Positions 15,284 to 59,276 of a stretch of 64,000 bases of DNA are shown in pieces; the first letter of the stretch is position 1, and each line of letters starts with the position of its first letter. Source of the stretch: Vairimorpha necatrix (Eukaryota). A model generated the notes under the pieces. The model did not search any database and was not told the origin of the DNA. It saw only the letters and a program-made list of their open reading frames with translations. The stretch is from the NCBI GenBank assembly GCA_036630325.1, contig CP142730.1, forward strand, positions 310,001-374,000, given 5' to 3'. A program made the position numbers and the translations under genes.

Positions 15284-15893
15284 GTCAAATACCAACAAGC
15301 GAGAGTATAACCCCAAGAACAAGTAAGGTAAATTGAAAAAGACATTTCGATAAAGATAGCTGCAACAATTGATAGCGTGGATGATCTAAGACCTCGAATA
15401 ATGTTTAAAAGTGCTTCTATTAAAGTAAACATACTCCTTGATACAGGAGCAACTACCTCTCTTATAAGGAAAGACGTAGCAAAGAAACTCAAACTAAAAA
15501 TGAGACCGACAAACACATCAATCAAAGGAATAAATGGCAAAATGCCAATAAAGGAAACTGCTACCTTACGAATTAAATTTCAAATAACATAAGTAACATA
15601 GAATGGCAAGTCCTTGAAGAGGCAGACGAAGAACTGATTCTTGGAATATCAGAAATACGAGAGTTGAACTTATCTAAGTTTATTTTTAAAAAGGACAATC
15701 CCCAGGATAAACAAAGAAAAAAGAAAATAGTATTAGTTTCCAAACTAGTAAATAAGGAGCCTGAAGAAGTAGACAGACGAACTAAACTTGGATTATGGAA
15801 TAATTAAAACTTCTCTGATAGAATCAACGAAATCATATCTAAATATAAATCTATCTTCTTAAAGAGCAACACCAAAAACACATTAGAATTGCA

Positions 15894-16994: not shown

Positions 16995-17447
16995 GAATTG
17001 CAACATGCAATTATATTGGTGCACTGGCCAGAGAAAATAACATGTGGTAAATATAAAAGAACACCAGAAGATCACGAATTCATAAAAAATGAAGTCATAT
17101 AATTTCTTGAATGAGGACTGATTGAAGAAAGCAACAGCAACTTCATCTCTCTAGTTGTCATCGTCAAAAGAGAAGGGAAAAGCCCAAGATTCTGCATTGA
17201 CTACAGGAAACTAAATAAACTAACCGTAAAAATAGAATACCCAATACCGCGAATAGACGAAACCCTAGACACACTATCAGGAGCTAAATATTACAACACA
17301 CTAGATATGGAGAGTGGGTATCATCAAGTCTACTTAAGAGAAAGCGATAAAGAAACCTCCGCATTCTATACAAGAGAAGGCATCTTTCAATGGAAAAGAA
17401 TGCCATTTGGATTAATAAACGCTCCGTTTACATGTCAGAAAATAATG

Positions 17448-18566: not shown

Positions 18567-18639
18567 GGTGCCCTTGGCCGAGTGGTCGAAGGGATGTTCT
18601 CATTGACCATTGGGCTGGGTTCGAGTCCCAGGGGCACCA
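18567..18639 (+). ncRNA. tRNA-like SINE head (tRNA-Met(CAT)-like)
   Basis: Acceptor stem GGTGCCC/GGGCACC+A, A box TGGCCGAGTGG, T arm CTGGG-TTCGAGT-CCCAG, anticodon loop CTCATTG on an imperfect stem. Confidence 0.75.
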
Positions 18640-21397: not shown

Positions 21398-21576
21398 TAA
21401 AAATGCTATTATTAAAAGATTTTTATTAAATAATATATATTATAATAAAAAACAAGTTATACGGCTTCTTGGCTGTACCAAAATTAATTGTCTACCCAAC
21501 AATTCACCAAAAGTTAGTAACTTTACTAATAAAAGATATGGATGTAAACTGAGATTTAAATCTCATGTCTATATCA

Positions 21577-24500: not shown

Positions 24501-25073
24501 ACAACGTGGAGTTCGAGGACTAGACGTTGGTGTAAGAGATATATAGGGAACGATTATGAAAGCATTGCCTACATTATAGGCAAGAACAAGATTTTAGAGG
24601 TACTTAAGGCAAGAGGTTCTTACAACACCACTTTAGGTGCTCTAATAGCAGATAAGTATGGAATCTATGACTCGCAGATCAAGTACATACTATCGAAATT
24701 TAATAACAGACAGGTCAGGAATTACACCAGGCTTCGGTGTAATTTAGTCAGATGGTCTTCTGCTTTGCTCAATGCCAACAGAATCCCTCCTTTTTATAGG
24801 ACTCATTGTTTCCTATGTGAGGGAGAACGAGAAGACCTTGAACACTTCTTGTTAGACTGTCCGACGCTCTCTAACACAAGATCTATATATGAGGATAAAA
24901 TATCTGAGTTGAGATCTTCAACTCAAACAAAAGAGGAGCTAGTTAAGATAATTATTGGTAACATCAATGGCATCAAAGCTTGTTTTGACAAAAGGAAGTC
25001 TCTACTTGTAAGAGTTCTTAGACAAGATGATTGTACAACGATATATCGTTGTACGAAAAAGAAAGGTTTGTAA
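21577..25073 (+). pseudogene. LINE ORF2: AP endonuclease + reverse transcriptase + C-terminal Zn knuckle
   Basis: Motifs LCLQET, VVGDMN, SDH, AAGPDKIP, NYRGIAL, QAGFR, FIDFEKAYDNV, LMFADD, CFLC...EDLEHFLLDC. Confidence 0.93.
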
Positions 25074-35987: not shown

Positions 35988-36242
35988 GGCCGAAATATCG
36001 GTCAGCCATATTAATAATCAATCCACTGTTTATTCTGATATGTGGAAAGGATATTCAAAAATGAACCAGATAATGGGAAGCCACATAAATGTTAACCATA
36101 GCAAATGGTTTAAAGATCCCATTACAGGTGTTCACACTAACACCATAGAAGGGAATTGGTCAGCTATAAAACGCCAAACGCCGATAAGATGTAGAACAAC
36201 TTGTTTAATATATCCCTATTTGTTAAGATTTATGTTGCTTAG

Positions 36243-39200
36243 TATGATATACCAAATATCATAAAACATATTTTTAGTTCTTTCCCTCCAAATTCGTTCA
36301 GTTTTCCCTCCAACATTTTTTTAAATATTTTATCCGGAGAGGGGTACGAAATGATGGAAAGGAAGAATAACTACACTAATAAAAATCTTCTAAATACTTT
36401 CCTCAGTGGTGGATACCACAAGTTAAATTTAACAAAGATGTGTCCTAAACTTAATAAAAGGATAGAAATTAAAAACTAAAGAAACATGATCAGCTTCGAG
36501 ATCAACGTCAAAGGCCTAAAGTAGCTTATAATTAAGCAATTAGAAATTATAACTAATTGTGAGAAAACCAATATGTTATCATGGTTTAGAAAGTTCGAAG
36601 AACTAAAAAATAAATTGGAATGGGACGGTGAAGAGACTCTTCTGGTTTTACAAAGTTTAATCGAAAGTGAAGAATGGAAAGGAAAAGATAATGCAAAAAA
36701 TTATTTAAAAGTTAAAGAGGAAATACTAAATATTGCATATCTGCATCACTTATTTTCAAATTTAGGAGTTTGATTGCTAGATATTAAACAAGAAAATTAT
36801 GATTTAATAGAGGATATGTTTGCCGATATTGATGCCAAACTTGAAGTGGCATCCTTTATAGAAAAATATACTAAGAGTGAGTATGAGCGTAGGTTTAATG
36901 AAATTTGTTTGAACGCTTTATCTGACGTTACCAAAGATTATGTCATGAAATCTAATACCAAGAGTGTTAAAGACATTAAATACTTATTGGTAAACCTGGA
37001 GAAAGAATTAGTGGTTAGAATTCGGAATGACTTAGAGTTAACTAAAAATTCCCAAGTTGAGTTCAATGAACCAAGACTGAGAAATGAGATGAATCGATGG
37101 TGTAGCTTGCACAAATCAAAAACTCATAACACCAGTGAGTGTTACAGTAAAAATAAAAGAATTGAGAATAAGAATAGTAAGATCAAAACAGACGAATTAA
37201 AAACTAATAAAGATCTTAAGTTTTCTCACTGTAAAGTGGTTTTAAAAGAAAAGTCTGAATATTTAACCGTAAAACTTCCAGTTTCAATTAATGGTCATAC
37301 TGGAATCGCTATTTTAGATACAGGATGCACTAAAAATTTGATAAGTGCAGAGAAGGTAGAAAAGTTAGGACTTATAGCCAAAAAGAATAGAACAGTAAGT
37401 TTTGTTTTCGGAAACGGCTATCAAGAAAGATCAGAAGATATTATAGGTGAATATATTTCGATAAATAGCCTTAACGTTAAATATTTTACAAGATTACACG
37501 TTATAAAAGAATTATCAGCAGATATAATTTTAGGGGTAGAATTTTTATGGGAGAATCAAATAATTTTAAACTTTGCAAACTTAACAATCAATCATAATCA
37601 AAAGATTATCAATATGATTGTTGGTTTGCCTCAACCATACGAGGAAAATAAAGATTTGTTACTGCAGAAATGCTTTTCCATAAGTGAGGAAAATGTCAGC
37701 ATGCAAAATAGAGATAAAATACTTCAATACATAAAAAACAACGAGTTTATAGAGAGATGAAAGTTAAGAAAATTGGTTTTGAAACTACAACAAAAGAGAA
37801 TTTAAGGCTAACAAATAAGAAATACACGATCCCACACAAATACCTAGATGCAACTAAACGAGAGATACAAAGACTCTTGAGAGAAAAAATCATAAAATAC
37901 AGTGATAGTAAGTACAGCAGTCCGGCCTTTGTAATTGCTAAGAAAAATCACGAAATAAGGTTAGTGGTAAATTATAGAGAATTGAATAAAAATATAGTTG
38001 ACATAATAGATTTATTACCAAAAATTATAGATATGATTAATGAGGTCAAAGGAGCAAAGTATTTTACAAAAATTGATCTTAAAAACGGGTTTGTTGAGTA
38101 TAGCATGTCAATCTCTGATATGGTAAATATCAGATGATATTTACTATAAATTGATTAAATAAATAAACCCATGTTTTTCGGTAATTATTCTGACCACAAC
38201 AGTTTGGCGACAACCGCAAACAAAAAAATCTTTAGGAACAGTAGAGAAGATGATCCGGATGCATTCTTGGCATACATAAGGGGATGGGCAGTAATTACAA
38301 ACTGTGGAGAAGCGGGAAAGGTTTTCTTCCTTCGTGATCATTTAGCAGGAGAAGCAGCTATATGGGCGGAATCGGTGCCATGGAGCTGTCAATTTGAATT
38401 CTTGTGTGAGGCATTTCTAAAAAGACTTAAAGGAAGATTAAGCAGTGTGGGACACATAAAAAATCTAGCACGATGCCTATACCAGTCGGGATCGTTTTTA
38501 TCATACCTGGATCAAATGAGAAGAATTTCAATAAAAGCTGGACTTCCAGATAATGTCCTAATTGCATTCGTACTCAATGGACTGCCTGATGATATTGGAG
38601 GAATTTTATTGATGAATACGCCGTCTGAACTTACATGGAACTATATCTATAATGCTTGCGAAGGACTCGATTGTAGTAATAGATCAATACGTATACGACA
38701 TTACCTCAAAAGGCCAAAAAAGAAACGATGGAGATATGCAAAGTGCAGGGCAATGAGTAGAGTTAGTATTGTGGCAGAAAAGGACGTTTTAAAAGAGAAT
38801 GCGAAAAAAGAAAAAAGGAACAGCGTAAAACGAAGGTAAGACAAGTTGGAATGGAAATTAAAGAAGAGGATGAATGCAATGAAAATAAAACTTTTAATTA
38901 TTACAACGCTATTAGGTCCTTAGATAATGGCTCAAATAAAGACCTCACAATAGTAGTTAAAATTGGAAAATTCCATGTACAAGCGCTAGTCGACTCAGGA
39001 GCATGCGTAAACTTAATTAAAGAAAAATACGTTAAGAATTTAAAACTAAAACACACAGGAAATCTTATCTCTGCAAACGGTACAGAAATAAAAACTTTGG
39101 GTATGTCAAGACAAAAATTCACGATCGGAGAAAGAGTTTTCGAAGAATATTTTGTTGTAACTAACGATATAACTTCAAATATGATCATTGGTCTCGGGTT

Positions 39201-42200
39201 CCTTAAGAAACATAAAGTCAAAATTGAATTTGGAATAGACTGTCGCATTGAATGGACACAAAAGGAGTGTGCAAAAGAAAATCTGGGAGAACATAGGATT
39301 ATCACTCAAAATCTCCCTCCAATAACGAACGCGTGTTATAGGTCAGGGGCGGAAGCGGAAAAGGAAGCGAAGAAAATTGTTAAACAATACCTAAAAGAAG
39401 GTGTCATACGGGAGTCTAATAGTCCATGGAGAAGTCCAGTGGTACTGGCAAAGAAAAAGAACGGAGATTACAGGTTATGCGTTGACTACAGAAGACTAAT
39501 CGAAATAACAATAAAAGACTCGTACCCCAAGCCTTGGGTTGACGAGATATTAGACTCTCTGCACGGATCATTCTTTTTTACTAAATTAGATGCATTATCA
39601 GGATATCACAAGATAAAAATGAATAAAAACGACATAGAAAAAACAGCTTTTTCATGCGGGGGTATTCTTTATGAATTTATGTACATGCCATTTGGTCTAG
39701 TGAATGCTCCAGCGACGTTTCAGAGGATTATGAATAGAATATTAAAGCCGTACCTCGGGAAGTTCACCATGGCGTATATGGATGACATTATTATATATAG
39801 TAGAACATTGGAAGAACATAGGGATCACGTTAGAAAAGTGTTAGAATTAATTAATAAGGCAGGATTAAAGCTTAACGATAGCAAATGTGAATATGAACAG
39901 AAGCAAATCTAAATACTGGGACACGTAGTAGATCATAGAGGGATTAGAATTGATCCAGAAAGGATAAAAGCGATTAAAGAACTAAAAATTCCCCAAAACA
40001 GAAAGGAATTAGAATCTTTTTTAGGGCGATTAACTATTGTAGTAAGTTTATAAAAAATTTGTCGAAAGAAACTACATACCTTTACGGATTAATAAAAAAG
40101 AATTCAGAAGTAGATTGGAAGAGAATTAGTAACGAAGACAAATATATTAAAGCTATCGAATCGCTAAAAGATAATATTGGAAGGATGGGAGTACTCGGAA
40201 TGCCCGATCTTAATGAAAAATTTATTCTTACTACAGATGCATCAGATCTTGGTTCGGGGGGCAATACTTTCACAGATACAGAGAGGAGAGGAAAAAAATC
40301 TTATGTTATTATTCTAAAGTGCATTCTAAGGCAGAAAAAAATTATTCAACGACAGAAAAAGAATTATTTACCGGTAATCAAAGCAATTGAGCATTTCAGA
40401 CATTACTTAATTGGAAAGAAATTTCTGCTAAGAACAGATCATAGTGCGATAAAATTTCTATTCAAGAGTACAAATATGAAAACAAAGTTCGCAAGATGGG
40501 CGCTCTATCTGCAGGAATATGATATAGAGATCGAACATATTAAAGGACAGAATAATCCAAGTGACTCTTTAAGTCGAATGATGGGAGAACGGCAGAACAT
40601 TAAAGTCATAAAAGAAAAAAGTGAAGTCCTGAAACTTGTGAAATGGACACACATACGGTTAGCACATGGATCAAGAAAAGCATCGATGTACGCCTTAAGG
40701 AAAAAAAAAAATTAAAAGTCTACAAAAGGAAGTTATAAAGACAATACAAAATTGCCTTAAGTGTTAACAGATGGGGCCATATTACATCAAGAGGAGCATC
40801 ATTCCGGTTAGAGCAGATAAATTAAACGTAATATGGGAAATTGACATAGTAGGGCCTCTACCGCAAAGCCAACAAGGATATAGATATTTGTTAACCATAA
40901 TCGATCACTTCTCAAAGGTAGCGAATGTAATACCATTGCGGACTAAGGATGCAATGGAAACGAGTGGGGGACTCGAAGAAACTATAAAAAAAATGGGCGC
41001 ACCAAAGGTTGTTATATCTGATAATGGAAAAGAGTTCGTGAACCAGAGCATGAAAAATTTAGCAACGATACATAAAATTGAATGGAGACTGGGGGCACCA
41101 TATACACCTACAACTACAGGGTTAGTAGAGAGATTCAACAGAACATTTGTGGAAAAGTTAAAAAAGGTGTCAAATTTCGGGAGGATTGACTGGTGCAATG
41201 CATTAAGAAAACGTTGGAATGATATCTGGATTCATTTCATCGAGGAATAAACTGTTCACCGCGGGAAATGTGGTCGAAGAAGAAAATGATAAAACAACAA
41301 AAACGGCACATAATCCAATATAAAACAAGTTACTGCAAACCGACAAGAAGTAAAACTAGAGAAGAAATTAAAGTTGGGGATAATATACTTAATCATCACC
41401 CAGTCAGTAAAGAACATAAATTAGCAGCAAATTATAATTTTAGTGGAACATTTATAGCTAAGAGGGTTGGATCTGTTGACATCAAGCTAACAGATGGAAG
41501 GATAATTACTTCGAACCTAAGTAACGCGAGAAAATATTTTTTTGAAAGGAGGAAGAGTGTTGAGTATATCATGTCAATCTCTGATATAGTAAATATCATC
41601 TGATATTTTCTATAAATTGATTAAATAAATAAACCCATGTTTTCCGGTAATTATTCTGACCACAACAGGGTTCAATCAAGTACCCATAGAAGAAAATAAT
41701 ATGAATCTTACAAGTTTTAAAATTTTAGGAAATGTATACAAGTATACAAGAATTCCATTTGGCATTAAATCCGGTCCAAAATTATTTCAAAGGACCATAA
41801 ACAAAATTTTAGCAGAAATACATAACGTAGTAGTATATATCGACAACATTCTAATATACACTTCAACCAAAGAAGAACACAATGAGATTTTAAACCAAGT
41901 ACTAGATAGATTGTCTAGTTATGAAATAAAAATCAACTTTGAAAAAAGCATATTTGCAGTTAAAGAAGTGGAGATGTTGGGACTGATTATAAATGAAAAT
42001 GAAATTAGACCAAATCTAAGTAATATTGACAAATTATTAGCAAAACTAAATATATCAAAACGTCGTGAATTGCAAAAAAATTTAGGAGTATTTAATTGGT
42101 ATCGAGAATTTGTGCCAAATTTCAGTATTAAAGTTATGACGTTAACAGATAAATTAAAAGGAGTTGAACAAAAGATAGAATTAAACGAGCAAGAAAAGAA

Positions 42201-43829
42201 AAAGATTAAGAGTTAAATAATGAAATTAAAGAAAACGGAAAATTAGTGTCTCCGAAATATGACGAAGATTTCTGTTTTCAGACTGACGCATCTGACAAAG
42301 CCATGGGTGCAGTGTTATTTCAAAAGCATGGATGCATAGGACATTATAGCAAGAAATTTACTAATACTGAAGTAAACTATACGATTGTCGAAAAAGAAAT
42401 GTATGCAATCTTACAAAGCTTAAGATTTTTCAAAGGAATTATCATGGGATACCAAGTTAAAGTAATGTGTGATAATAGAAATTGCTTGTTCGACACTAAA
42501 AATGATAACAACAGAATGATAAGATGGAAATTAATGCTTAACGATTATAACTTTACATTAAAAGGCATCGAAGGAAAGAAAAATGTGATTGCTGACATTT
42601 ATCACGAATACCATCAGACGAAGTTTAGTAGTGGCAGTGAATGCAGAAAATCAAGCAAAGAAAGTAATAAAAGAGACACCTCATGTTACAGAAACCAAGA
42701 AGAACGGTGAAATTTACATAAAGCCATGTGAAAGGGAATTGTTCAATAAAATATGCATATAAAATGTAAGCATGCGGGGATGTTCGTATTATACAATAAT
42801 TTAAAAGATTACTACTACATCCATAAGATGAAGGAAACTATCAGAAGCGTAGTAAACAGTTGTCAGGATTGTAAATTTGATGAAAAATTTAGCTACCATA
42901 GATTTGAAAATAAAATGGAAATTACCGCAAGTATAGCCTTTGAAAAAATTTGTTCGGATATATACGGCCCTACAAAAATAAAGAATAAAAAATGGTATAT
43001 TATGACGATTATTGATGTGCACACCAGATATACAAAGGTGTATAAACTAAAAGAAATTACAGATAAAAGGGTGGTAGAGTGTTTCGAACAATGGAATAAT
43101 AAATTCCCTTACCCCAAAACAATAATTACAGATAATGGAACACAGTAAACTAGTAACTTAGTTAAAGACTATTCTTATAGACACAACATAAAATTAGTAC
43201 ATGTACCTAAGTATCATCCCCAGAGCAATGGTATCTGTGAGAGGACAAACAGTACTATTTCGGAAATAATCAGGCTATATAAAAGGGAACCCCTAGAAAA
43301 TATAATGGAAAATATAGAAATCCGATTAAACCAAAATTATCGAAGATCAATAGGTTGAGCACCAAAAGAATTAGTTGCAGAGACTAATCAATTTGATCCT
43401 GAAGGCAGATCACATTTTAAGAAGATACATAGGAGAAAGAAAAAGAATTTGGCTAAGAAAAAGATTAATGCAGTTAAAATAGGTGATATGGTGTATGTAA
43501 AAAACTTTAATGGGAAAAATGGGAGAAGGCATATACGGGTCCACACCTAGTAGAATTGGTCAGCAGAAATGACCGATGGGTTAAAGTTAAGGGAGTCTAC
43601 GAATGATTCACCTAGGTGATACTAAACTTTGAAATCTAAGGAGAGGTAGATTATGATGTACCAAATATCATAAAATATATTTTTAAAATCTTTCCCTCCA
43701 AATTCGTTCAGTTTCCCCCCAACATTTATATAAATATTTTATCCGGAGCGGGGTACGAAATGATGGAAAGGAAGAATAACTACACTAACAAAAATCTTCT
43801 AAATACTTTCCTCAGTGGTGGATACCACA
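36243..43829 (+). mobile_element. Ty3/Gypsy element B (complete gag-pol, degenerate), same clade as E1/E2
   Basis: 178-bp LTRs at 36243-36420 and 43652-43829 ending ggataccaca; TSD CTTAG; gag knuckle WCSLHKSKTHNTSEC; ILDTGC protease; RT split by element C (KIDLKNGF|NQV); RH and IN to ~43630. Confidence 0.93.
38092..41667 (+). mobile_element. Compact Ty3/Gypsy element C (3.6 kb), frameshifted
   Basis: 110-bp LTRs at 38092-38201 and 41558-41667; TSD GGGTT; PBS tggcgacaaccgca (tRNA-Ser-like); gag from 38171; ALVDSGA; YMDD; TTDAS; IN EIDIVGP...SDNG...VERFNRT; PPT. Confidence 0.95.
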
Positions 43830-45307
43830 CTTAGAAAATCAAAAGACAATTATTTTAATGTTTTAATAAATTTATTATTTTAAGTATTTCTCCTCCTTTT
43901 TTCCATTTTGATTTTCTAAAAAAAGGGATATTTTTTAAAAATTTGTATTTATATATGTAGGGGGGCATAAAGTGAAAAAGCTCCGCGATTTTATCTCAAA
44001 CAAATGAAAAGGAAAGATACCCTTTAGCATTTGCTTAAATAAGATTAAAAGAACACAAGAAAAGTATAGTATTTCAGAAAAGAAATTTATAGCAATTCTA
44101 TGGGGATTGAACATTTTAATATTTTGTGTATAGGACACCGGTAGATGTTATTACTGATCATAAAGTTTTAGAGGTTATTAATAAAGGAGACATAGCATGT
44201 CCTAGAATTCAGCGATGGTTAGATAGATTAAGTATGTTTGACTTCAATATTAAATACAGAAAAGGAAATGAGATGGTCCATGTAAATTGTCTTAGTAGAA
44301 ATACACGAGTACAGAGTTGGAGAAAACGGAGAATAATGTCTTAATGAAAATAAATTACATAAAATGTGACGAAAAAAAACGAAAAAATTTATAAGGAAGG
44401 TTCATTAAGAATGTTTACACAGAGGCGAAAAGACAATAAAACATAAACTGCTTTCACAAGGTACATGCTTCAATAATATGGACAGAATATAAAAGAAGAG
44501 ATTTCAAAATGTGTAGTATGCAAACAATACAATCCAAAAAAAAAACATTTTGTATTTGTAACAGCTCAAGAAGTAGGAGAAAGGTGGCGGTGGATATAAT
44601 AGGATCAATAGAGAACTGTTACATAATATCTGGGATTGATTATTTTTCGAGAAAGGGATTTGCAAAGATAATCAAGTCAAGACAAGATAGGAATGTCACA
44701 AGTTTGTGAAGGAACTTCATAAAGAATTAAAAATTCAAATGTTAATTTACAATCTAGGGAAAATTTGAGTAAGAAAAGCCAAGATTTCGCAAGAAAAGAA
44801 AATTTTGAACTGCATTACACCTCTCCGTTTCATCATCAATCAAATAAACGGGTTGAGAGATTCAACAGAACTCTACAAGATCTAATAGATAAGAGTAAAC
44901 AGGATAAACTCCTTACAAATAAGCTAACAAGAGCAAAAAATATATATAATGAGTCATATCACACTGGCATAGAGATGACGCCTGAGGAGGCCTTAAAAAA
45001 AGAAAATTATCAACATTAAAGGAAAATACAATTCATGAATAGAATTAAGTTCAGTAAAGCAAACTGCAACAAAGAGAAGGAGGAAATATCTAAAAAAAGA
45101 GGATATAGTTTTAATAAGAAAAAAAAATAGGTCGGACTAAGGGACAACCCAGATAAGGCCAGGGGAATAATTCTTAATAAGGCTGGAGAGAATTTATATA
45201 ATATTAATGTAAAAAATAAAATAATCAAAAGGCATGCGCCACAACTTAAAGTAATTGTAGACGAGCCTTCCTTTTGACCGGTGGAATGTTGTATTATTTA
45301 AAAATTT

Positions 45308-46621: not shown

Positions 46622-48752
46622 TTTGACCGAACCAAAGACTTCTGGAAATTGCTGTAAAGTTTTTCTAACGTCACAATTAGATTAGATAATGTTTGCCTGA
46701 AAATGTATCAGGCTTGGCTTTTAATAAGCATAAAAAGAAGTTAGAGATTGCTAATGATTTTTGTGCTACTCTAGCCAATATAAGTGGAGATGTTGAAAAC
46801 GTCTATTAAAAGAATATCGAGGGGGATTTGTCAGAGAACATCAATTTGGATGAATTATTGAGAGTCACAAATAACGGTGGTACAACAAGGCAGCAGGCCC
46901 GGATGAGATACCGTTCGAGCATTATAAATACTATTTAACCCCAGTTTAGTAGATAAAAAGCTACCTCTGTTTTTGCCGAGTTAACAGGATACTTTTAAGA
47001 GACAACCCTCCTATTAGCTGGATTGCTGTTGACATGATTTGCCTCTATAAAAAATGAGATGTGTCAGATATCAACAATCATAAAGGAATTGAGCTAATTT
47101 TTACAATTAGTAAAATTTACTTAAAAATAGTAAACGACGGACTTACGCAGTTTGTTATAAATAAAAAAAATCCGTATCATGGGTATTAGTCGACATTTAT
47201 GTCGTATAATACTCACTAAATTTATTTTTTATATTGACCTAAAAAATTGGAAATTGACTTAAAGAATGAAAAATGACTTCAAAATTGGCACTTATCTAAG
47301 ACTTAGAAGTTGGAAGTGGAAATTTGATCAAGATTTTATAAAGATAAAACTTATTAGTCAATTGTTTAAGTGTAGAAAGTATTGTCATAAATTTATAATC
47401 ATAAGAATTAAAGAAAGTAATTTATGAAAGAACTTGTGGTTTTTATAATTCTAAATGTTTAAGAGTATTGTCAACTTTTAGCTTGCACTAACTCTTTTAA
47501 ACGATTGGAATTGAATCTATAGAACGTCTATGCCGTTATAATTTTGTAGTTGTAAAATAAAAATTTAATATCAGATTTCAATAGTCATCGAATCGATGGC
47601 AAAAACAGTTTCTAAAATATAGTCGAATAACGTAAGTAGTTTCAAACGCTTTTCATTAAACTCTGTTCTGTCAGGAGTAACGGAAGTATAAGACAAATGG
47701 GCTAATCATTATTTTGCTACAAGCAGCAATGTCATATTGGTAAGGTTTCAAATAATCAAGTGTAGTATGTGGTACTGTGGATACAACTTCAAAGCTGCAA
47801 AATATTATATACAAGTCGTAACAAATAGATCTGATGAAATCCTGTTGCCTATTATTAAAAATATTTGTAAAGATGGGACTTTTATGTTCAGCGATGAATG
47901 GGTTGTCTACAAAATAAAATCCAGGAAACATTTGGCTTAAAACAAGGTAAATGCTTCTTTTCATTTTGTGAATCTTAATTAAGGAGTAAATGCTTAATGT
48001 ATAATCATACTGGGCCAAGCAAAAATTTAACATAAAAAATATGCATTGCAAAATTATTTTAAAGAAATTATGTTTAAAGAAATATAAATAAGAGCCGTGA
48101 TCTAATTATTTTTATAGAGTTGTTGTTCGTTGTAGAAAATCTTTTGATTTTATTTGCTTTTTTTATCTAATCGGCCAAATCTTTATTTTTTTTATATATG
48201 TCGCATAATACCCATGATCCGAACATTCTTTCTCGCTTTCAGGCTGGATTTAGAGAAAGGAAAAATGTAATAATCAGATTTCAACCTTGCTGGAGGTTGC
48301 TAAAAAAAGAGAATTTTAGGTCAACAAACATAGTTATGTTTTACTGACTTCGAAAAAGCATATGATGTGTTAGCCATGAGCTGCTACATAATAAGCTAGA
48401 AAAGTATAGTATTCTAAGATATCTCATGAATACATTGAAGGATACTTATGGAAATACTCAGATAAGAATTCGTATAAACGGAGACACAAGCAGTTGTTAT
48501 CTTAAAAAAGGGGACAGAAAGGGAAGCCCCTGTTCTCTTATGCTGTTCAACTTATTCATAAATGATATTTTTGATGGTAAAACAGGATTGAGCGTTCCTT
48601 GCTCTAATATAAGCCTGCTAGGACTGATGTTTGCAGATTACATTGTAGTTTTGGCCAATACTATTGCTGATCTGAAAAAAAATTGTTCAAATCGGCAGAT
48701 GGGCAATTGAAAATCGTATGAAAATCAATGTGACAAAATGTGTATCTTAGTA
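46622..48752 (+). mobile_element. Degenerate LINE ORF2 fragment
   Basis: Collinear with ~22915-24003 (RT region; LMFAD remnant in 48426-48710); interrupted by Merlin 47174-48220. Confidence 0.85.
47174..48220 (+). mobile_element. Highly degenerate Merlin transposon
   Basis: TIRs gtatcatgggtattagtcgacat / atgtcgcataatacccatgatcc; remnant VVTNRSDEILLPII...FSDEW. Confidence 0.75.
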
Positions 48753-49003: not shown

Positions 49004-49079
49004 TGTTGAGAATAGTAGACATGAGGAATATTTAATAATAATATTGCTATTTATAGCCATCCAAACATCCCGCCCCCAA

Positions 49080-49633
49080 AATACGTTTACGGTCTACTAG
49101 TCTTTTTAAAACATTCTCTGTCTCGTGTCCCTGTTGTTTACAAAAATTGCAAGTTTTTTTATTATTAGTGAGCTTATTCCTTCTTGTTCTGCTGGTAAGT
49201 ATTTTAGAAGTGTGTGCCAAAAATTCTTCCGTATCGGTGTGTAGGCTCAACATCATGTGGACTTCCACATTTCCCATAGCAACAGTAAGGCTTTAGTATT
49301 TTATGATCATTTTATCCGTGGCTCCAAGTCGTTTTAAGTCCTTTTTCAGTCTGTCTAGATATTCAGTTACGGATTCAGTGCTTTTCTTGTGTTTGCACAT
49401 ACTTTTTATACGCTATCAGCTGTAATTTTTTGGTCTTCGGCACATTTTTTGATGCCCTTCCATGTTGTAGAACCTTCCTGTAATATATACTCTCCCAATT
49501 CGATATTTGCATTCCTAATTATATAATTGAATTTATCTTCGTCTTTTAGGTAAAACTGCAAATTTAAGAGTCTTATTTTTACATTTAAAGTTGACTTACA
49601 GAAGGTTTTGGTTCTTTGAATAGTTTCTGTCAT
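49080..49633 (-). pseudogene. Second Gag-like ORF downstream of integrase in element E
   Basis: ATG at 49633 after tacccgtaa. Reconstructed across frameshifts: ...STTWKGIKK...KKSTESVTEYLDRLKKDL...CNFCKQQGHET(.EC). Confidence 0.7.
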
Positions 49634-52600
49634 TTACGGGTACTAAAATAAAAATTTATGTCTTTTTGGTTTTATAACAAGCAATCATATAGTTGGTACT
49701 GATTTGAGCTGAGAATTACTCTTTTTGATCAGTTTATCGTTTACTTTTACTAAATAAAAGTCATTTCTAACACAGTATGTGACATTCCCTCTTCAATGAA
49801 TTTATCGTTGAGCTTGTCCTGTGCTTGCATTGGATTTTGTTGGATATACACTTGTTCTCTAATTTCAAATTTTTCACGTGGAAGTTTTTTAAAATCTTTT
49901 CCGTATTTTGAATCTTTTTTATTCAATTCTTTCAATGTTTTATTATCAGGATCATCCCATGCTTCGTTCGGGGTACAACCTATTGCTCTATTAGATGTAT
50001 TTGTAATTTTATTTTCTACATCATATAAAATTTCTTCTAATGTTTCCTTTTGATTACATTCTATTTTTTTAATGCTTGCCAAATTTTCCTATGTAATCTT
50101 TCTATCCTACCATTAGACTGATGCTCGTCTAAAGAAATTTTATGGTGGTTTATTAACATATTAGACATGATTTCTTTAATAGTTGTAGCTGTAAATTCTT
50201 TTCCATTGTGTAATAATTATCTCTGGAACTCCAATCTCTTGAAACATTTCTGTTATTGCATTTCTACAAACGCTAGCTTTCTTTGATTGAAAGGGTTTCA
50301 TCATACATCTACGTGCAAAGTAATCATAACAAGTCAAAAGTGTCGTATTCTGCTCAATAAACATTAGGTCCATTCCAAATATTTCTAACGGTCAATGTGT
50401 TTCTTCAAATTCTTTACCTCCTAAGCTTTTTTGATCGAATAAAACACATGATTCACAGTTTTTTATATAGCTTGTTATCGATTCTGTCATTTTTGGCCAA
50501 TAATAGTTCTTTTTCAATTCGTAAGTCATGCCACTTATTCCACCATGCGCAGTGCTTACTTCGTGTGCTTTTTATACAATATCTTTTCTTTCAAGAACTT
50601 CGGGAAATATCTAATTTCATTTTTATTTACTTTATAGTACCACTTCCCATCAGAAGCGATTAATACGTTTTTATTTTTAGTTCTAAGTTCTTCAACTCCT
50701 TTGGATCACCAATCCTGCTAATTCCATCGGCATCTATTAGTTCTTTGCCTTTTCGATATTAAATTTCGAAATCGTAATCCTGTAATTTTTCTCTCATTCG
50801 TTCTAGTCGTAGGTTTCCAAAAATGTGTTTATCTTTCATAGATAAAATTGCAGAATGATCTGTTATTACTTTAAACTTTCTTCCTTAAAGAATATAATCA
50901 AAGTGTGTAATACCCAAAGCCATCGCCAGAAATTCCTTTTCTGTAATTCCATATTATTTCTCAGCATCTGTCAGTTTCTTTGATGCTCAATCTACTAATG
51001 CAATTTCGTTATTGTGCTCTTGTTGTAGGCATGCACCGATTCCTGTATTTGATGCGTCGGTGGATAGTATAAAGAGTTTGTTGTAGTCAGGAATATGTCT
51101 AGCAATCTTACTGTTGATTCTTTCTTTAATAATATCAAATGCTTTTTGTTGCTCCTCCTTCCATATAAAGTTATTCTTCTTTTTAAGTAATTCATAAAGC
51201 AGAGCAGATATTGTAGCTAGGTTTAAGATAAATCTTCTGTAATAATTGGCTAATCCTAGAAATCATTGTACTTTATTAACTGTGGTTGGTACTTTAAAAT
51301 CTAATACCTTTTTGATGTTGTTCTATTGGATATTGTTTCTTTCCATCGATCATCATTCCTAATAATTTAATTTTTTTTTTAAATTATAATTTAGTTGGGT
51401 TGACCTCGAAGTTGTTTTTTCAAGTATTGTCAAAACATTAGCTAGGTTATTGTCATGTTCTTCTTCTGTTGTTCCAAAAATTATTATGTCGTCTAAATAG
51501 ACGCAACAAGCAGTTTCAAGGTGGTTTTCTAGTAATCTATCCATTATCATTTGAAACATGCCAGGTGAATTCTTAAAGCCTTGTGGCATCCGTGTGTATT
51601 GGTGTAGTTTATTTTTAAAATAAAATGCGGTTTTATATTTATGTTCAGGTTTTAGGTGTATTTGATAGTAGGCACCTGTCAAATCTATAAATGTAAAAAA
51701 TCTTTTGCCTCGCATGGCATCTACTATGTTTTGAATTACAGGTATTGTATAGTTGTTATCTTCAACTAGGTTATTCAGAAATTGCATATTGTTTGTAATT
51801 CTAACAGTGCCATCTGGTTTCAATACTGGTCTTATGGGATTACACCAAGCTGATGTCGAATATTCTATATATCCTTGTTCTAATAATTTGTTAAGTGTTT
51901 CTTGTGCTCCTTTCATTAGGGCCTGTGGTATATTTATGTATTTTATATTCACTTTCTTACCTATCGGTGTGTTTATCTCACACATTATATCCGTGTATCC
52001 TTTACTTGTCTTTCCATCAAAAACCTTTGGAAATTTTCTTACAAGCTCTGAAAGTTCATTTTCAAGTTTTTTTACTTTATTTAAAGTTGGCCTGCCGATA
52101 ACTATCTCTTCATTGGAATTCTTAAAAGCTCCTACATAACATTACTGAGTAAGTAAAATATCATTTATTTTTAATGTTACCTCTACCTTTTTAGTCAGTT
52201 CTGTTACTACCCCAAACACGTTTTTTATTGTTGTATGTTCACAGGGTAATGCAATAAGTCCTCTTTCTTCTACTTTCTTTTCATTGATAATGTTCACATC
52301 TGATCCTTCATCCATAAAAGCGGAGATATTTGCACTGTTTAGTTTTATCTCAGTTACATTATCACTTTTGTTATTATCCATTGGTTCTTTTACTAATTGA
52401 TTAAATTTTTTCATTTCAGTTTTGTCAGTTTGTTTAATGGGTTCTTTATGTCTTGGCTCTGAAACGCTTTTTCTTCTCATTACTGTCTCTCTATTAGCTC
52501 CTATCTTTTTTACAGATTTCTTAATATATTCCACTTCATCTATATCTTTTAAAATCATTTCTTTCTCTTTGTAAATATTACGTTCAATCAAACATTCTTG

Positions 52601-52739
52601 GATAATCAACATTGAATCTAAGTTAACACATGTATTCTTAATGAGCATTTTAGTATATTCTTGAGGCAAGTTGGCTGCACTTGCCAGGGGAAGAACTCTT
52701 TTTATCCAAGTTGCTTTTGCTAAATTAAATTTTTGTTTT

Positions 52740-53087
52740 TGGCGTGTTTACCAGGGAGCTTGCCAGTAGCAAGGAAGCATATAATGATGCTACGGTTTGG
52801 GAGTCGTGAAACCCGGAGTTAAAAGAGTTGGAGGGAAAGGATTGTTTTTTGTTATGAAAAGAGTTTGGTTTATCTGATTTGTAGAAGGAAGAGTGTTGGT
52901 TTGCATTCTGATGTTGTACCATGTTGTTCATGGAATTTCTCTATTTATATTACATAGTAACCAATAGAAAGAAATAAGATTTGGCTGACCAATAATAGTC
53001 GACCATAACTGATCGTTCCGAAGAAGCATCAGCGTTTTATTATTTATTGGTTTTTATAAATCATGTGGTATGATCCATTATACCACA
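52740..53087 (-). mobile_element. Solo LTR inserted in the gag of element E
   Basis: TSD GTTTT at 52735-52739 and 53088-53092; TGTGGTAT...CA ends; paralog at 8572-8916. Confidence 0.9.
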
Positions 53088-53948
53088 GTTTTGATTTTAA
53101 AATTTTCTCTAAAGCATTCCTTTCCATGTATTTTTAATTTTTCATTTAAATGTTCGCCATGATATTTTTGTATATTTTTCTTTGTTTGTGTACAAGAAAT
53201 AAGCGGCTTCATCGTCAGAAAATAATAAGACGGTGTTTATTTTTTCCTCATCTACAATTTTATTTTTGTCTTTAAAATATATCTCGAACTTCATGCAATC
53301 TACAAGTGCACTTTTTAAACTGAAGATGGGTGCTTCCATCCTTCTATATAAGTTTTCCGTGCCGGGTGCCATGTTGAGAATAGTAGACATAAGGGGCATT
53401 TAATAATAATATTACTATTTATAGCCATCCAACAACTATAACCTGTTTCTTTATTTTTTACACAACAAAACAAAATTAAATTTTTTTTTAAATAGAGTTT
53501 CTGTGTCAACTGCTATTAATAAATGACTATTGGGATATAAAATTAAATGGCAAAGTATGTATAAATAAGCAAGATAAAAAAGTTTGATTTCCAAAATCCA
53601 TATTTGATTTTGTCATAAGCATATGTACTTGCAAAAAAAGCACAGATTTCGATATTTAATGATCTTATGTTTTGATAGTAAATATTTCCTAATGAACAAA
53701 AATTAAAATTTTTTTAAAACACAAAATTTTGAACAATTATTAAAATTTCACAGAATTACTAAATTATACTTTCTTGATTATAAATTGAATTTGATTTAAT
53801 TCTACGTGATTTCACACACATTATATATGCAAAAAAAAATACCTCCTTTGAGTAAATTAACATAAAAAACAAACTCGATAATTTTATATTTCTAGGCTTT
53901 TTTCCTATAATTTTTTTAGTTAATTCATAATTGTTTTTTATCCCTTAA

Positions 53949-55616
53949 ATGGAAAAATTAAAACTTTACAAATTTAGAGAGACCTGCAGTTGTTGTTTTT
54001 TAAATGTGAAAAGTGGAATAAATGTTTGTAAATGTCAAATATCTTTTTGTGATAAACATTTCGACGTACATACAAACAAATCTTCTTGTTCGCTTTTGTA
54101 CAGAGTTCATGATCAAGATACGCTACACATTCAAGCTTCTGATTTAAACAATGAAGAAAAACAAAAAGCTCTTGAAAAACTTAAACTAATTTTAAAATGT
54201 AATAATTATGACGAGAAAGTTATTTTTAAAACAGATGAAGTCGAGTGCCATCATATTCTTCATATAAGTGTACATGACAAGATTCAAATTGATAAACTAA
54301 AAAATTTAAAATGTAACGACTGCGAAGTTACAAAAAATTTATACATTTGTTTTACATGTGGGTTTATAGGATGTGGTAGAGTACAATTTGGCATAGAAGG
54401 CAATGGACATGCCAAACATCATTATAATGTCACTGATCATTGTATTTTTGTATTAATTTCTTCAATAACCCCAGAATATATTTGTGATACTTTTTGTTAC
54501 AAGTGTGACGAGTTTATTGTCAATCCAATTTGTGAAGCGAAAATTGAATGCGTCGAGTTTTTCACGACAGATGCATCAGAGACTGACAAAAAAGTTGTAG
54601 TCGAAGAGTCAGTAAATGAAGATCCAAGTCCATTTTTAGGAATTAAAAATGCTGGAAATACTTGTTTCATTTCTTCATCTCTTCAATTAATAGGATTGAT
54701 AGCTTCTAAAGAAGATTTAGATTTTGAGAAACATTTTGAAATTTGCGAGGAGAATAATCCTCTTAATTGTATTTATTGCCAAGCATGTAAAATTTTCAAT
54801 GAAATGAAAATTAAAAGGAAATCTATGGATTGTAAATCAATTTCCATACCCGACATGCTAGTACTGATTTGGAGAAGATTCCCATTCTTCGAGAAAAATG
54901 TACAAGAAGATGCTAGCGAATTTCTTCTCGCTTTTTTAAATCTTCTAAGCGAGGCCGAGTCAATAGGATTATTTCCAAAAATTAGTCAATTTTTCAAACT
55001 AAAAACAGAAAGTCAAACAAGTTGTAATTCTTGTAAATCATCAAGAGTCAATGAAGAAGAACAGTTTGCTTTATTTCTTCCTTTTAAACAGTCTCTACAA
55101 AGTTGTGTAGAAAATTATTTCAAAGATCATACAGGCGTATGTTCTTGTGGAAATGAACAAATAGTCTCTAATAAAATTCTGTCGCTTCCGAAATATTTAC
55201 TAGTTTCAGTAAAGAAATTTAAATATGAAAATCAAGTATGTACAAAGATTTGTGATAGTTTGTCAGTCGATGAAGTAAATTTAGTGAAATTTATTAAAAG
55301 ACCTTCTATTTCTAATTATTTTATTCAAGAGCTTATTTCTAAAGGATTCAAAGAAGGAGAAATTTTATTAAGCTTGTCTTCTAATGTTGACTTTGATAAT
55401 AAAGAAGAATTAATTAGAGAATATTCCGAATCGTATCGTACTAATCCCGTGTACAATGTACAAGGGTCTATAGTGCACACAGGCACTAGTTTTAATGCTG
55501 GTCATTACATGTGGTTTGTAAAGAACAAGGATGTTTTTTATTTGGTGAATGATAGGAAAATATCCGAAGAAAGAGTTGAGTGGTTTGAACAATCCTATGT
55601 GATTTGTTTGTATTAA
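53949..55616 (+). CDS. UBP14: Ubiquitin carboxyl-terminal hydrolase, Ubp14/USP5 (isopeptidase T)-like
   Basis: zf-UBP (C.TCGFIGCGR...GNGHAKHH), Cys box GIKNAGNTCFISS, QEDASEF, His box HTG...AGHY. CCC motif before the ATG. Confidence 0.9.
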   Translation: MEKLKLYKFRETCSCCFLNVKSGINVCKCQISFCDKHFDVHTNKSSCSLLYRVHDQDTLHIQASDLNNEEKQKALEKLKLILKCNNYDEKVIFKTDEVECHHILHISVHDKIQIDKLKNLKCNDCEVTKNLYICFTCGFIGCGRVQFGIEGNGHAKHHYNVTDHCIFVLISSITPEYICDTFCYKCDEFIVNPICEAKIECVEFFTTDASETDKKVVVEESVNEDPSPFLGIKNAGNTCFISSSLQLIGLIASKEDLDFEKHFEICEENNPLNCIYCQACKIFNEMKIKRKSMDCKSISIPDMLVLIWRRFPFFEKNVQEDASEFLLAFLNLLSEAESIGLFPKISQFFKLKTESQTSCNSCKSSRVNEEEQFALFLPFKQSLQSCVENYFKDHTGVCSCGNEQIVSNKILSLPKYLLVSVKKFKYENQVCTKICDSLSVDEVNLVKFIKRPSISNYFIQELISKGFKEGEILLSLSSNVDFDNKEELIREYSESYRTNPVYNVQGSIVHTGTSFNAGHYMWFVKNKDVFYLVNDRKISEERVEWFEQSYVICLY

Positions 55617-56401
55617 AACATTAGTAAAGCCATGATCACTCTTAAATTGATCGCATTTTAATTTTCATAAATAAAAACAATTTTGTAAATTTAGATAGTG
55701 TTTTTACATAAAAATTTATCATTCTCAGGTGTGTATTGTTTTTTTGTAAACATATAACTTTTATTTATCACTGTAATTTATTTTTTGCTTTGTCTAATTA
55801 TTTTATAAACAAAGTTAATTTCTTATAAAATAGCATTAAAAATAATTTAAGCATAAACAAGAGTTAGAAGAAAAAAAAATATTTTAGCACACAGGTGTAA
55901 GAAGATGTATTTTCTCATGGTCAATTATTCGTAGCTTTATTATATCCCTCCAAGGGCATTTTATCTAGATTTAGATTTATAAGATTAGAATTATACGCCC
56001 AGAACGTACAAGAACTATGTCATTTTTTGACAAAAAAATATTAGATTTTAAAATTTAACTGTTTAATTGAAAACATGTGGTTTTTTATAAAATATTTAAG
56101 AAAACAACATGTCAAACATATTAAATTTTAACAGAAGAATTTAAGCACGTGGTGTACGAAAATAGCATTAAATGGCTCTTTCTCTAAATATTTAAATATG
56201 TTGTACGTGCTGTATATGTTTTCATCATCAATGCTAACATATGTTGATAACTTGCTGCATTACAGTAGTGTCCTCATTTTATATGAAATATACAGTTATC
56301 TTTCTAATTGTAATTTTTTATATTAATAAATGACATTCAAACTTCAAGGGCTCTTTATTTCGCACTAGAAAATTATTCAAATTTTAAGAATTGACCCCCA
56401 A

Positions 56402-57562
56402 ATGTTAGATGAAGTAGAGTTATTTAGAATGAGGAAATTACTGAAAACTCTTAAAGATAGTAGAGGAAATGGAACTTCTATGATTTCTTTAGTAATTCCA
56501 CCCAAAGATCAAATACATAGAATCACAAAAATGCTCACTGATGAATATGGCACTGCTTCTAATATAAAATCCCGAGTAAACAGACTTAGTGTACTTGGGG
56601 CCATTACGAGTGCCCAAAATAAAATTAAAACTTATAAAGAAACGCCGCCCAATGGATTAGGGATATTTGTTGGTACTGTCTTGAATACAGAAAATAAAGA
56701 AAAGAAAATTAGTATAGGAATAGAACCAATAAAGCCAGTAAATACTTCTTTATACATGTGTGATTCTAAATTCCACGTAGATGATTTATTAGCTCTTTTT
56801 GAGGATGAATTTAAATTCGGAGTGGTTGTTATTGATGGACAGACAACACTTTTTGCTACTTTACAGGGTAATGTAAAGACAATATTACAACAAATTCATG
56901 TTGAATTACCAAAAAAACATGGACGAGGTGGTCAATCCTCAGTAAGATTTGCTAGACTACGTGTAGAAAAGAGATTTGCGTATATTAAAAAAGTATCGGA
57001 AATTATTACTAATTTGTATTTGACGAACAATGTGTCAAATGTAGAAGGTCTAATTTTAGCTGGTCAATCAGATCTGAAAAATGAATTAGCTAGAATACTT
57101 GACCCGAGAGTGAAAGTTATAAAAACAGTTGATACAAATTATGGAGGAGAAAGTGGACTAAATCAAGCTATTGAATTATGTGAAGATGTTTTAAAAGATG
57201 TAAAATTATCTAAAGAGAAAAAAATTCTCCAAGAATTTTTTAATGAAATAAATTTGGACACTGGCAAATATTGTTTTACACTCAAAGAGACGATGTATTG
57301 TTTAGAAATGGGCGCTGTAGAAACTCTGATAGTTTGGGAAAATTCAGCCGAGATGAAAGAAGAAGAGACTTTTGTGGACTGGATAGCAGAAAATTATAAA
57401 AATTATGGATGTACATTAGTTTTCGTCAGTGATAAAAGTTCTGAAGGTACGCAATTTGTAGAAGGATTTGGTGGTATTGGTGGAATTTTAAGATATAAAG
57501 TAGAACTTAATGGTTATTGTGATGAAGAATATTTTTCAGATGACGACGATGCGCCTTTTTAA
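56402..57562 (+). CDS. SUP45: Eukaryotic peptide chain release factor 1 (eRF1)
   Basis: GTSMISL, TASNIKSR (NIKS), YMCDSKF, HGRGGQS (GGQ), GFGGIGGILRY. Confidence 0.98.
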   Translation: MLDEVELFRMRKLLKTLKDSRGNGTSMISLVIPPKDQIHRITKMLTDEYGTASNIKSRVNRLSVLGAITSAQNKIKTYKETPPNGLGIFVGTVLNTENKEKKISIGIEPIKPVNTSLYMCDSKFHVDDLLALFEDEFKFGVVVIDGQTTLFATLQGNVKTILQQIHVELPKKHGRGGQSSVRFARLRVEKRFAYIKKVSEIITNLYLTNNVSNVEGLILAGQSDLKNELARILDPRVKVIKTVDTNYGGESGLNQAIELCEDVLKDVKLSKEKKILQEFFNEINLDTGKYCFTLKETMYCLEMGAVETLIVWENSAEMKEEETFVDWIAENYKNYGCTLVFVSDKSSEGTQFVEGFGGIGGILRYKVELNGYCDEEYFSDDDDAPF

Positions 57563-57574
57563 TAAATAGAAACT

Positions 57575-57790
57575 TACTAATATATTAATACAATTATTAT
57601 AATATAAATATAATTCAATTATTATAATATAAATATTAATTAAATATAATATATCAAATTCAATATATATATAATTAAATATAATACTAATATATTCAAA
57701 TCTAATATATATATATATTTAAATTTAATATAAATATTAATTACTAATATTAATGTATATGTCCATATAAAACTAATTATCAATGTTTAT
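57575..57790. repeat. Extremely AT-rich low-complexity spacer between convergent genes
   Basis: Repeated aattattataatataaata-type words. Confidence 0.6.
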
Positions 57791-57794
57791 TAAT

Positions 57795-58912
57795 TTATAA
57801 ATTAGATTTAGCTTCAATTAATTCTTCTCTGACTTTTTCAATATTTGTTTGTAAATTTTTTAAGCTTCTAATTTTTAATAAAATCAAATTTGTCAAACTT
57901 TCCTCTAAGACATTTTCTAATCTCTTGATTTTCTTCGTTTCTAATTCAATAATTTCTAGACTTTTCTTTTTCGCTTCATTTAACATCGTCTTAAGAAGAT
58001 TCTGTGTCTGATTAGAAATTTCTTTAATACAAATTTTCGCCGCACTGGCTGCTACAGAGGGATGAATTACTGAAGATAAAAAGACTAAAATATGTGTAAC
58101 AGGATTAGATGACAACATAAAAGGCATATGAGTAGAAAACCCAATTTTAGAAAGATTATTTTCTAAAATTGGTAACATAATAAAATGATAAATACATTCA
58201 TGTTTAGATTTTGTCTCTACGAAATTTGCTACATTAGTCCAATCATCTCCATATTTTTCTATGGCTTCTAATAATTTTATTTCTTCTCTTTTTGTCCATA
58301 TTTTAGGCTCAATTTCTCTGTCTATAAAAAAAAATCACTGACATTTAAATGTTCAGGAAATTTGCCTTTTCTTAGGCATTTTTCACAGATAAAAAAATTA
58401 TCTTTAGAAAAAAACTGACTTTCTTCTTGACAAATACAGAGATTTTTAGTATCAATAATATTAGGAATAAATTCTTCTTTTTTTGGTTTATTAATAACAT
58501 TTATATTCTTTAATGCTTCTTCACATTCTCCTATGATATCTCTATTATTAATCATTTTAATTTTATCTAAAAAATTGTAAATTTTAAAAACATTTGCAAA
58601 TTTGTGAGATGACAAAATATTTAAAACTGTTTTTAGAGACAAAAAAGTCAAGGATTTTTCATAATTTTCAAGGATAATATTTCTTATTTCTAAATATTTA
58701 GGAATTTGACCAAAATAATTAATTTCATAAGAGCTTATCTCTGTCATATTAAACCATTTGTATTTTAGACCCTGTTTATATTTATATTTTATATCATTTT
58801 TTGTATTAAAAACATAAGTTGGTTTATTTCTAGGGGGGAGAGCATTTTCTCTTTTTTTACCGTAAATTTCTTCAAATTCAATTTTTTCACAAACTGGGTA
58901 AACATTTTCCAT
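57795..58912 (-). CDS. SWI/SNF-RSC subunit Swi3/Rsc8-like (SWIRM + Zn + SANT + coiled coil), split by an apparent 1-nt homopolymer error at ~58330
   Basis: ATG at 58912 after CCC; SWIRM (WF...IS.YE...YLEIRN.I...FL.KIKMIN); after the T9 run a SANT domain WTKREEIKLLEAIEKYGDDW...TKSKHECIYHFIMLPI joins ORF 57795-58178; NPV...LVFL motif. Confidence 0.85.
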
Positions 58913-59276
58913 GAGGGGTAAAAATAAAATAAAAAAAAAGCATAAAAAAATAAAGGACATGAACATGAGAAAAAAAAAATCAATTAGAAGAAAATTTAAA
59001 ATGATAAGACAGAAAATCCACAAAAAGATTATTGTAAAAAAATCATGCAAAAGAAAAGTTTAAATAAAAAAGAACCCCTGTAAAAAATTATTACAAAAAT
59101 AAAAGTAATCATTAAAGATGGTTAAATCTTATAAGCGACACTGGGAAAATATGTGCTAATAAAATAAAAAACAAACTTCATATGTATCAGAATAGTAATA
59201 AGATCAGTCCACATTGTTGGAATGTAAACATGGGTTTATTTATTATAAAATATTTAAAGAACAGCGGGTCAAATGA

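Follow-up and report, generated by a model that had tools for sequence, protein, structure and literature searches.

A dead Ty3/gypsy retrotransposon of Vairimorpha necatrix with a remotely gag-like module downstream of pol, probably captured by a small sublineage

Can a long terminal repeat (LTR) retrotransposon that reads gag and pol as one frame carry a second gag behind pol, and is such a gene a part of its family or an addition of a few copies? The question is raised by a stretch of 64,000 nucleotides of Vairimorpha necatrix (GCA_036630325.1, contig CP142730.1, positions 310,001 to 374,000 of the forward strand; below, the window). It contains a Ty3/gypsy LTR retrotransposon, element E (window 53434-49004, minus strand), with an extra module of ~560 nt, here called gag2, between the stop of pol and the 3' LTR. 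An earlier note on this DNA had described a gag'-pol-gag order; this order is present here and unusual, but is not conserved across the family. At a probability of roughly 0.6, we favour the reading that the module was captured by few copies as an accessory gag, in a sublineage of a compact clade, and is dead here, its function unproven.

Downstream of the pol stop follow 17 nt, AAAAAGAC (49667-49660), ATAAATTT, CCCGTAA and an ATG at 49633. The earlier note had placed this ATG correctly; its distance from the end of integrase, given as ~55 nt, was corrected to 51 nt with the end of pol at TGA 49687-49685. The module is made up of the following features:

49108-49659, minus strand: extra module gag2, comprising a start motif, a capsid (CA)-like frame and a CCHC knuckle, within the ~560 nt between the pol stop and the polypurine tract (PPT)
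49660-49667, minus strand: left copy of AAAAAGAC, the 8-nt direct repeat flanking the module (right copy at 49107-49100)
49631-49659, minus strand: gene-start context ATAAATTT..CCCGTAA-ATG, from a motif survey of the ATGs of the window
49409-49633, minus strand: gag2 piece 1, 75 codons, ending in TAA
49296-49409, minus strand: gag2 piece 2, in another frame, with ESVTEYLDRLKKDL, aligning to gag profile positions 90-119
49111-49292, minus strand: gag2 piece 3, which contains the knuckle CNFCKQQGH at 49151-49111; the open stretch runs to 49050

The gag2 frame (~180 codons; open stretches of 75, 38 and 81 codons) is broken four times, by the stop 49408-49406 and a frame change at the same place, by the stop 49295-49293, and by a slip in the knuckle. 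In the latter, CX2CX4H is in frame, and the last Cys codon, TGT (49113-49111), follows the His codon after 11 nt and one base out of frame; read in the frame of this TGT, gag2 ends 8 codons on, within E's own untranslated region (UTR) and before the PPT. The ~185-residue Gag-like protein of the earlier note was accordingly retained as former gag-like coding sequence, on the profile match given below and the CCHC motif, but not as an open frame; of its two hallmarks, ESVTEYLDRLK and the CNFCKQQGH knuckle, both are present, the latter with its last Cys out of frame. Both E and the module are pseudogenes in this window.

The start of gag2 after a CCC motif was confirmed, with CCCGTAA and ATAAATTT upstream of the ATG. 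ATGs with CCC account for 5.4%, and those with CCC plus an upstream box for 1.7%, of the ATGs in the window (n = 2221). CCC-N2-4-ATG also stands ahead of two of the three host genes in the window and of several transposase genes; the gene starts at 53949, 56402, 6398, 14673 and 38171 show CCC(C)-N2-4-ATG, in many cases preceded by an AAATTT-like box at a distance of 20-30 nt, a context that helps to call true starts in this genome.

The sequence of gag2 is hydrophilic and gag-like on reading. When a gag profile of E's clade was searched against 1853 open reading frames (ORFs) of the window, pieces 2 and 1 of gag2 scored best after the two 5' gag pieces of E, with E-values of 0.16 and 0.4 at collinear positions. 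Joined with X at the breaks, gag2 aligned to profile positions 42-160 with 15.7 bits; none of 2000 shuffles of the joined sequence reached this score or exceeded 10.6 bits, and the reversed sequence gave 5.3 bits. In a language-model atlas, piece 1 lay near Retrotrans_gag clusters in 5 of 30 matches and piece 3 near zf-CCHC in 7 of 30, both of which were taken as leads only. The notion that both the open frame of gag2 and its CX2CX4H motif arose by chance would fit the lack of a Pfam gag domain and of database relatives, but was rejected as most improbable in view of 75, 38 and 81 open codons on one strand of DNA with 31% GC (~0.078 stops per codon, p ~0.002 for 75 codons), the collinear profile match that no shuffle reached, and the conservation of the sequence in other copies. 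Judged by these alignments, the module is a former coding sequence that appears remotely homologous to the clade's CA and extended by a knuckle. Because it is only remotely like E's own gag (15.7 bits), it was regarded as a foreign gag and not as an extra dose of E's Gag; by the same alignments it would not be a recent duplicate of that gag.

The distribution of the module was read from related elements and from contigs of two public runs, X1 and X2. For the latter, the differences and joints are those among the matches listed, from which copy counts are not derivable; read depth was not used for copy number, and low or no X1 depth in the interior of E was read as fragmented repeat contigs, not as absence. 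The module is skipped by contigs of both runs, with a joint from 49107 to 49670 in X1 (11 letters between, depth 58) and one from 49112 to 49670 in X2 (5 letters between, depth 16); the sides measure 30 and 39 nt. In L004, an intact relative, the 3' LTR follows the pol stop at a distance of only 82 nt, and polyproteins of the type of P0002, the closest relative (1115-1126 aa), are found on contigs of 3476-3516 nt, with no room for the module. An ORF of at least 60 aa between pol and the 3' LTR was present in none of six complete or near-complete related elements (L006, L008, L012-L015). The wider family gets by without the module. A further joint that goes back, from 53413 to 49202, was set aside, as it probably stems from the 3' LTR of a different copy.

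Contigs with module sequence were found in both runs. X1 record 3 (341 nt, 49 other letters, 8 gaps; ~84%) spans 49555-49853, from integrase into the module, and at least three to four X2 contigs cover 49407-49450; at least one further X1 contig and at least three X2 contigs have T>A at 49407, which turns the stop 49408-49406 into a sense codon. On these contigs, a small sublineage carries the module.

These data bear on two explanations in which the module belongs to the family. According to the first, put forward in the earlier note, the 3' gag is a designed part whose subgenomic mRNA yields the surplus of Gag that is out of reach for one fused gag-pol frame, and so solves the Gag:Pol ratio. 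The clade does have one fused frame (our data; Parisot et al., 2014, PMC4202319, in the part used here), and the module has its own start motif and stops neatly before the PPT. Copies without the 3' ORF, which the earlier note had named as speaking against its proposal, were looked for and found (skip joints in two of two runs, L004, the P0002 contig sizes): relatives lack the module, including the intact L004 with its identical LTRs and all six elements above, module-less copies are present in the same read sets, and co-assembly is not expected as a matter of course for a module only remotely like E's CA. The proposal was not upheld, and the designed part is considered quite improbable. According to the second, the E copies of this species had the module from the start, and those without it arose secondarily, by deletion between the repeats on either side, as the 8-nt direct repeats and the presence of the junction in a diverged copy (~84%) might suggest. 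A repeat-to-repeat deletion, however, predicts CCAAAAAGACTAG, where the module-less contigs carry 5 or 11 extra letters, and all outgroup elements examined are without the module, which leaves this explanation unlikely.

The carrier itself was delimited and annotated as follows, with protease, reverse transcriptase (RT), RNase H and integrase abbreviated as PR, RT, RH and IN:

53372-53434, minus strand: 5' LTR, 63 nt, TG..CA, containing TATAAATAG, a CCCC motif and the polyprotein ATG (CCCC-TT-ATG)
53357-53371, minus strand: primer-binding-site (PBS)-like TGGCACCCGGCACGG, overlapping the polyprotein codons M-A-P
49685-53390, minus strand: remnant of a gag(CA)-PR-RT-RH-IN polyprotein in one frame, collinear with P0002 residues 1-1125 in tblastn
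52560-53390, minus strand: 5' gag, a two-lobed CA-like region without zinc knuckle, from profile matches, interrupted by a nested solo LTR
52735-53087, minus strand: solo LTR from a different family, nested in E, 348 nt with TG..CA ends, together with a 5-bp target duplication AAAAC, 353 nt in all
52157-52351, minus strand: protease region with a degenerate DEGSD site, weak Asp_protease match (E 0.04), collinear with P0002
51359-52141, minus strand: reverse transcriptase, open over 260 codons and the sole long stretch of this kind, RVT_1 at E 1.1e-24, 59% identity to P0002
49685-50610, minus strand: integrase region with the true pol stop, TGA 49687-49685
49078-49107, minus strand: 3' UTR common to module-less copies, opening with the right AAAAAGAC copy (49107-49100)
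49068-49077, minus strand: polypurine tract GGGGGCGGGA, directly before the 3' LTR
49004-49067, minus strand: 3' LTR, 64 nt, also containing TATAAATAG

The direct repeats 53372-53432 and 49004-49064 are 92% alike; as TG..CA units, the LTRs extend over 53434-53372 and 49067-49004, with 5 mismatches and 1 indel, and the borders 49004..53434 proposed before match their ends exactly. The layout of both LTRs is that of L004, with its 67-nt LTRs. TGGCACCCGG lies directly after the 5' LTR of E, TGGCACC comes after the LTR in L004, and NMAP at the N-terminus is kept in 6 of 8 relatives. A matching tRNA 3' end for the PBS-like site was not found with the only tRNA of the window, a tRNA-Met (CAT) gene at 18567-18639 (+) identified by ARAGORN in a stretch rich in transposable elements (TEs); its 3' end does not match the PBS, by which it was ruled out as E's primer. 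No target-site duplication was seen at the ends of E (ATAGT and ATTAA) or around L004, the contig of which may be a collapsed assembly.

Compared with P0002, the polyprotein of E is interrupted by ~20 in-frame stops and changes frame at least four times, and is therefore dead; its pol ends, after a frameshift, in SQLKSVPTI* at TGA 49687-49685. The RT frame finds single-frame polyproteins of 1003-1136 aa with 48-59% identity, one named relative being from the microsporidian Enteropsectra breve. E's relatives carry rve, RNase H and Integrase_H2C2 domains, and P0002 carries RVT_1, RT_RNaseH, Integrase_H2C2 and rve. Searches of metagenome loci with E's RT yielded only relatives of 28-30%; in viral contigs, none were found.

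That E has a 5' capsid-like region without zinc knuckle was borne out: a profile built from the N-termini of eight relatives matched the 5' region of E (E 9e-14 and 3e-9), and a CX2CX4HX4C knuckle is present in none of 17 close relatives (P0002-P0015, P0034-P0036). The knuckle-less capsid-like 5' gag is a trait of the whole clade. An AlphaFold2 (AF2) model of P0002 residues 1-175 reached a predicted local distance difference test (pLDDT) score of 84.4 and matched the Arc C-lobe (Z 8.3, root-mean-square deviation (rmsd) 3.2, 79 aligned residues), the dArc1 capsid (Z 8.1, rmsd 8.0, 147 aligned residues) and PEG10 CA (Z 7.9, rmsd 2.4, 82 aligned residues), with nearly all remaining structure matches being capsid proteins. 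As these Z values are middling for helical folds, the predicted CA fold of the clade's 5' gag has moderate support.

The members of the clade (P0002, L004 and the Enteropsectra breve protein) are compact, with ~3.5 kb, LTRs of <70 nt (63-67), a 3' UTR of <100 nt, a CA-only gag and a frame that starts inside the LTR and passes through the PBS to IN. L004 was found on a 4623-nt contig (element at 416-3945, same contig as L006) filed under an Erysipelotrichales metagenome-assembled genome (MAG), and was regarded as a eukaryotic contaminant there because the contig sits in a bacterial MAG. The element is intact, with 3530 nt, 100% identical 67-nt LTRs and one 1109-aa frame, the ATG of which lies within the LTR and in which the PBS is read as codons M-A-P; to our knowledge, it is among the most compact autonomous LTR elements. 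G002, the genome with L005, is a 4.0-Mb MAG labelled Clostridium sp. with 45 matches to the microsporidian-type polyprotein profile, in several families; many contigs of this bin seem to be heavy contamination from a eukaryote rich in TEs. E meets the traits of the clade once its two insertions are set aside: without the 353 nt of the solo LTR and the 562 nt of the module, it measures 3516 nt, the length of P0002's contig.

The first of these insertions had been overlooked by the earlier note. In X1 as well as X2, contigs lead straight from 52734 to 53088, with sides of 255 nt, and depth on the insertion amounts to 5460-14770, versus ~215 on the neighbouring host gene. A second solo LTR copy, 92% alike, is found at 8568-8915 with the target duplication GAATC/GAAAC. 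The nested piece is a solo LTR of another, very abundant family. In run X1, reads cover this family 25 to 70 times as deeply as a single-copy gene, and its internal part was not seen in the window. Without the solo LTR, the 5' gag of E reads through, with frame slips, in line with its relatives. The stretch CFLATGKLPGKHA, considered as a decayed knuckle of the 5' gag, falls within the solo LTR and was ruled out.

The module might also descend from an independent LTR element that entered E's 3' UTR and was then truncated, with loss of its LTRs and pol. Remnants of nested elements crowd the region, E's own gag holding a solo LTR, and the gag2 frame stops right after the knuckle, where in a polyprotein the protease would follow. 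The statement that neither an internal LTR nor a target duplication marks a nested insertion nonetheless held: an alignment of the sequence upstream of the module ATG with E's LTR, tried as a truncated LTR, was discarded since 156 of 300 shuffles reach its score, and the module is flanked by the 8-nt repeat and not by a 5-bp duplication as at the solo LTR. Furthermore, the window holds no close gag (best E 0.0044, for the knuckle-bearing ORF 1926-2846, the closest to the module), and the same junction is found in a diverged copy. A nested fragment is therefore regarded as improbable. CCHC gags of the window are located at 1926-2846 and 32678-34630.

In the reading we favour, one sublineage would have received a foreign module of ~560 nt in its ~65-nt 3' UTR, at 25 nt from the end of pol, possibly by recombination or template switching, in the manner in which retroviruses transduce genes. 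This module would have brought along a gene start of the host type, with AAATTT-like box, CCC and ATG, as well as a small but complete Gag of a CA-like region and one CCHC knuckle, and would then have been copied with the element a few times. As it is only a remote relative of the clade's CA, it presumably derives from another gag lineage. An intact module might have been expressed as a free CA-NC (capsid-nucleocapsid) protein, by way of a separate short mRNA with its end at the 3' LTR.

The donor was sought in several collections. Word searches of protein libraries with piece 1 (longer and near lengths) yielded no relative, and metagenome loci searched with the same piece yielded none; phmmer of piece 3 against 1.84 billion representatives gave a single match (E 2.8e-4), to a knuckle-repeat protein only; and the best E-values for the module in G001 and G002 were 0.07 and 0.68. 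These blanks say little, because the species' own E proteins are absent from the same libraries (best RT match 59%).

A number of results weigh against the capture of an accessory gag. No donor was found in protein libraries, metagenome contigs or two contaminated MAGs. The distinction between gain and loss of the module is based on outgroups only, the junction sequences fitting either, and the sides of the skip joints are short (30 and 39 nt). No intact module copy was seen among the contigs of the runs, and the readable differences in the module (n = 4 among those listed) comprise 2 synonymous changes, 1 replacement and 1 stop-to-sense change. As to its gag nature, hhalign of piece 2 against the gag profile gave a P of only 0.067, Pfam searches with the gag2 pieces returned zinc-finger noise and no gag domain, and the capsid-fold check proposed in the earlier note, which through P0002 turned out in favour of the 5' gag, was useless for gag2, with pieces 2 and 3 (X at the stop) folded by AF2 at a pLDDT of 39.6.

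Our best guess for the effect of the module, which is tentative, is a trans-acting, knuckle-bearing Gag such as the polyprotein lacks; a neutral passenger is at least as likely. A stronger version, which we consider doubtful, would have the sublineage acquire a complete foreign CA-NC gag with its own promoter and a separate mRNA, making it a gag-pol-gag element whose second Gag supplies nucleocapsid or extra capsid in trans, or brakes copy number like Ty1 p22.

Positions 1-47000 of the window are mostly a transposon graveyard, with Merlin/IS1595-like transposases (5451-6398, 16512-16916, 35989-36261), a Mutator-like element (MULE) with FLYWCH (13313-14673), a long interspersed nuclear element (LINE) with endonuclease and RT (~21339-25070), and several other Ty3/gypsy fragments (15332-17456, 25673-26017, 32678-34630, 36774-45016). 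A non-LTR (LINE-type) RT fragment (48366-48710, +), multi-copy in both runs, lies just beyond the 3' LTR of E. On the other side, 53949-58966 contains three intron-less host genes, as fits a microsporidian genome. They encode a ubiquitin hydrolase of the UBP type (555 aa), an eRF1 that is short at 386 aa, and a protein with a SWIRM domain. E lies upstream of the ubiquitin hydrolase gene at a distance of 514 nt and has the opposite orientation.

Retroviruses transduce foreign genes by recombination during reverse transcription. Like there, a foreign coding segment in E would lie between pol (or env) and the 3' LTR, with junctions of little or no homology; unlike there, the cargo would itself be a gag, and none of the carrier's own genes is lost. 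The Ty1 p22/p18 restriction factor and Fv1-type inhibitors are Gag-derived and act in trans on particle assembly, and a separately initiated Gag-derived protein is likewise proposed for E. Ty1 p22 is encoded within the gag of Ty1 itself, whereas that of E would be a second, foreign gag downstream of pol. TR-GAG and BARE2 are gag-only, non-autonomous elements that borrow pol; as in these, gag is uncoupled from pol, but E holds both gag and pol in one element. A second gag after pol was not found in the literature searched on LTR elements; extra genes known at this place are env-like, lipase or exonuclease genes.

Microsporidian Ty3/gypsy elements with one polyprotein, forming a microsporidia-specific clade, have been described (Parisot et al., 2014, PMC4202319). 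E resembles them in its one fused gag-pol frame, collinear with proteins of this kind, among them the one from Enteropsectra breve, and differs in that its sublineage has a gene after pol, of which the part of that paper used here makes no mention. The nearest precedent appears to be the capture of ORF3s by LTR retrotransposons of bdelloid rotifers (Rodriguez, Kenefick & Arkhipova, 2017, PMC5408684), likewise lineage-specific extra genes between pol and the 3' LTR, missing from basal branches and forming separate transcription units. In the portion of that report drawn on here, the ORF3s are env-like, GDSL lipase, DEDDy exonuclease or coiled-coil/transmembrane genes, none of them a second gag, and use spliced messages, whereas a promoter-like start of its own is proposed for the module of E.

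As the window holds a dead copy and the family does without the module, the locus is a curiosity and not a new principle. If the capture is true, E would show that LTR retrotransposons can in nature take up structural genes of competing lineages. Should intact copies have an active module, this would bear on the supply of structural protein in single-frame elements without frameshifting or splicing, and on the handling of RNA by elements without a zinc-knuckle nucleocapsid.

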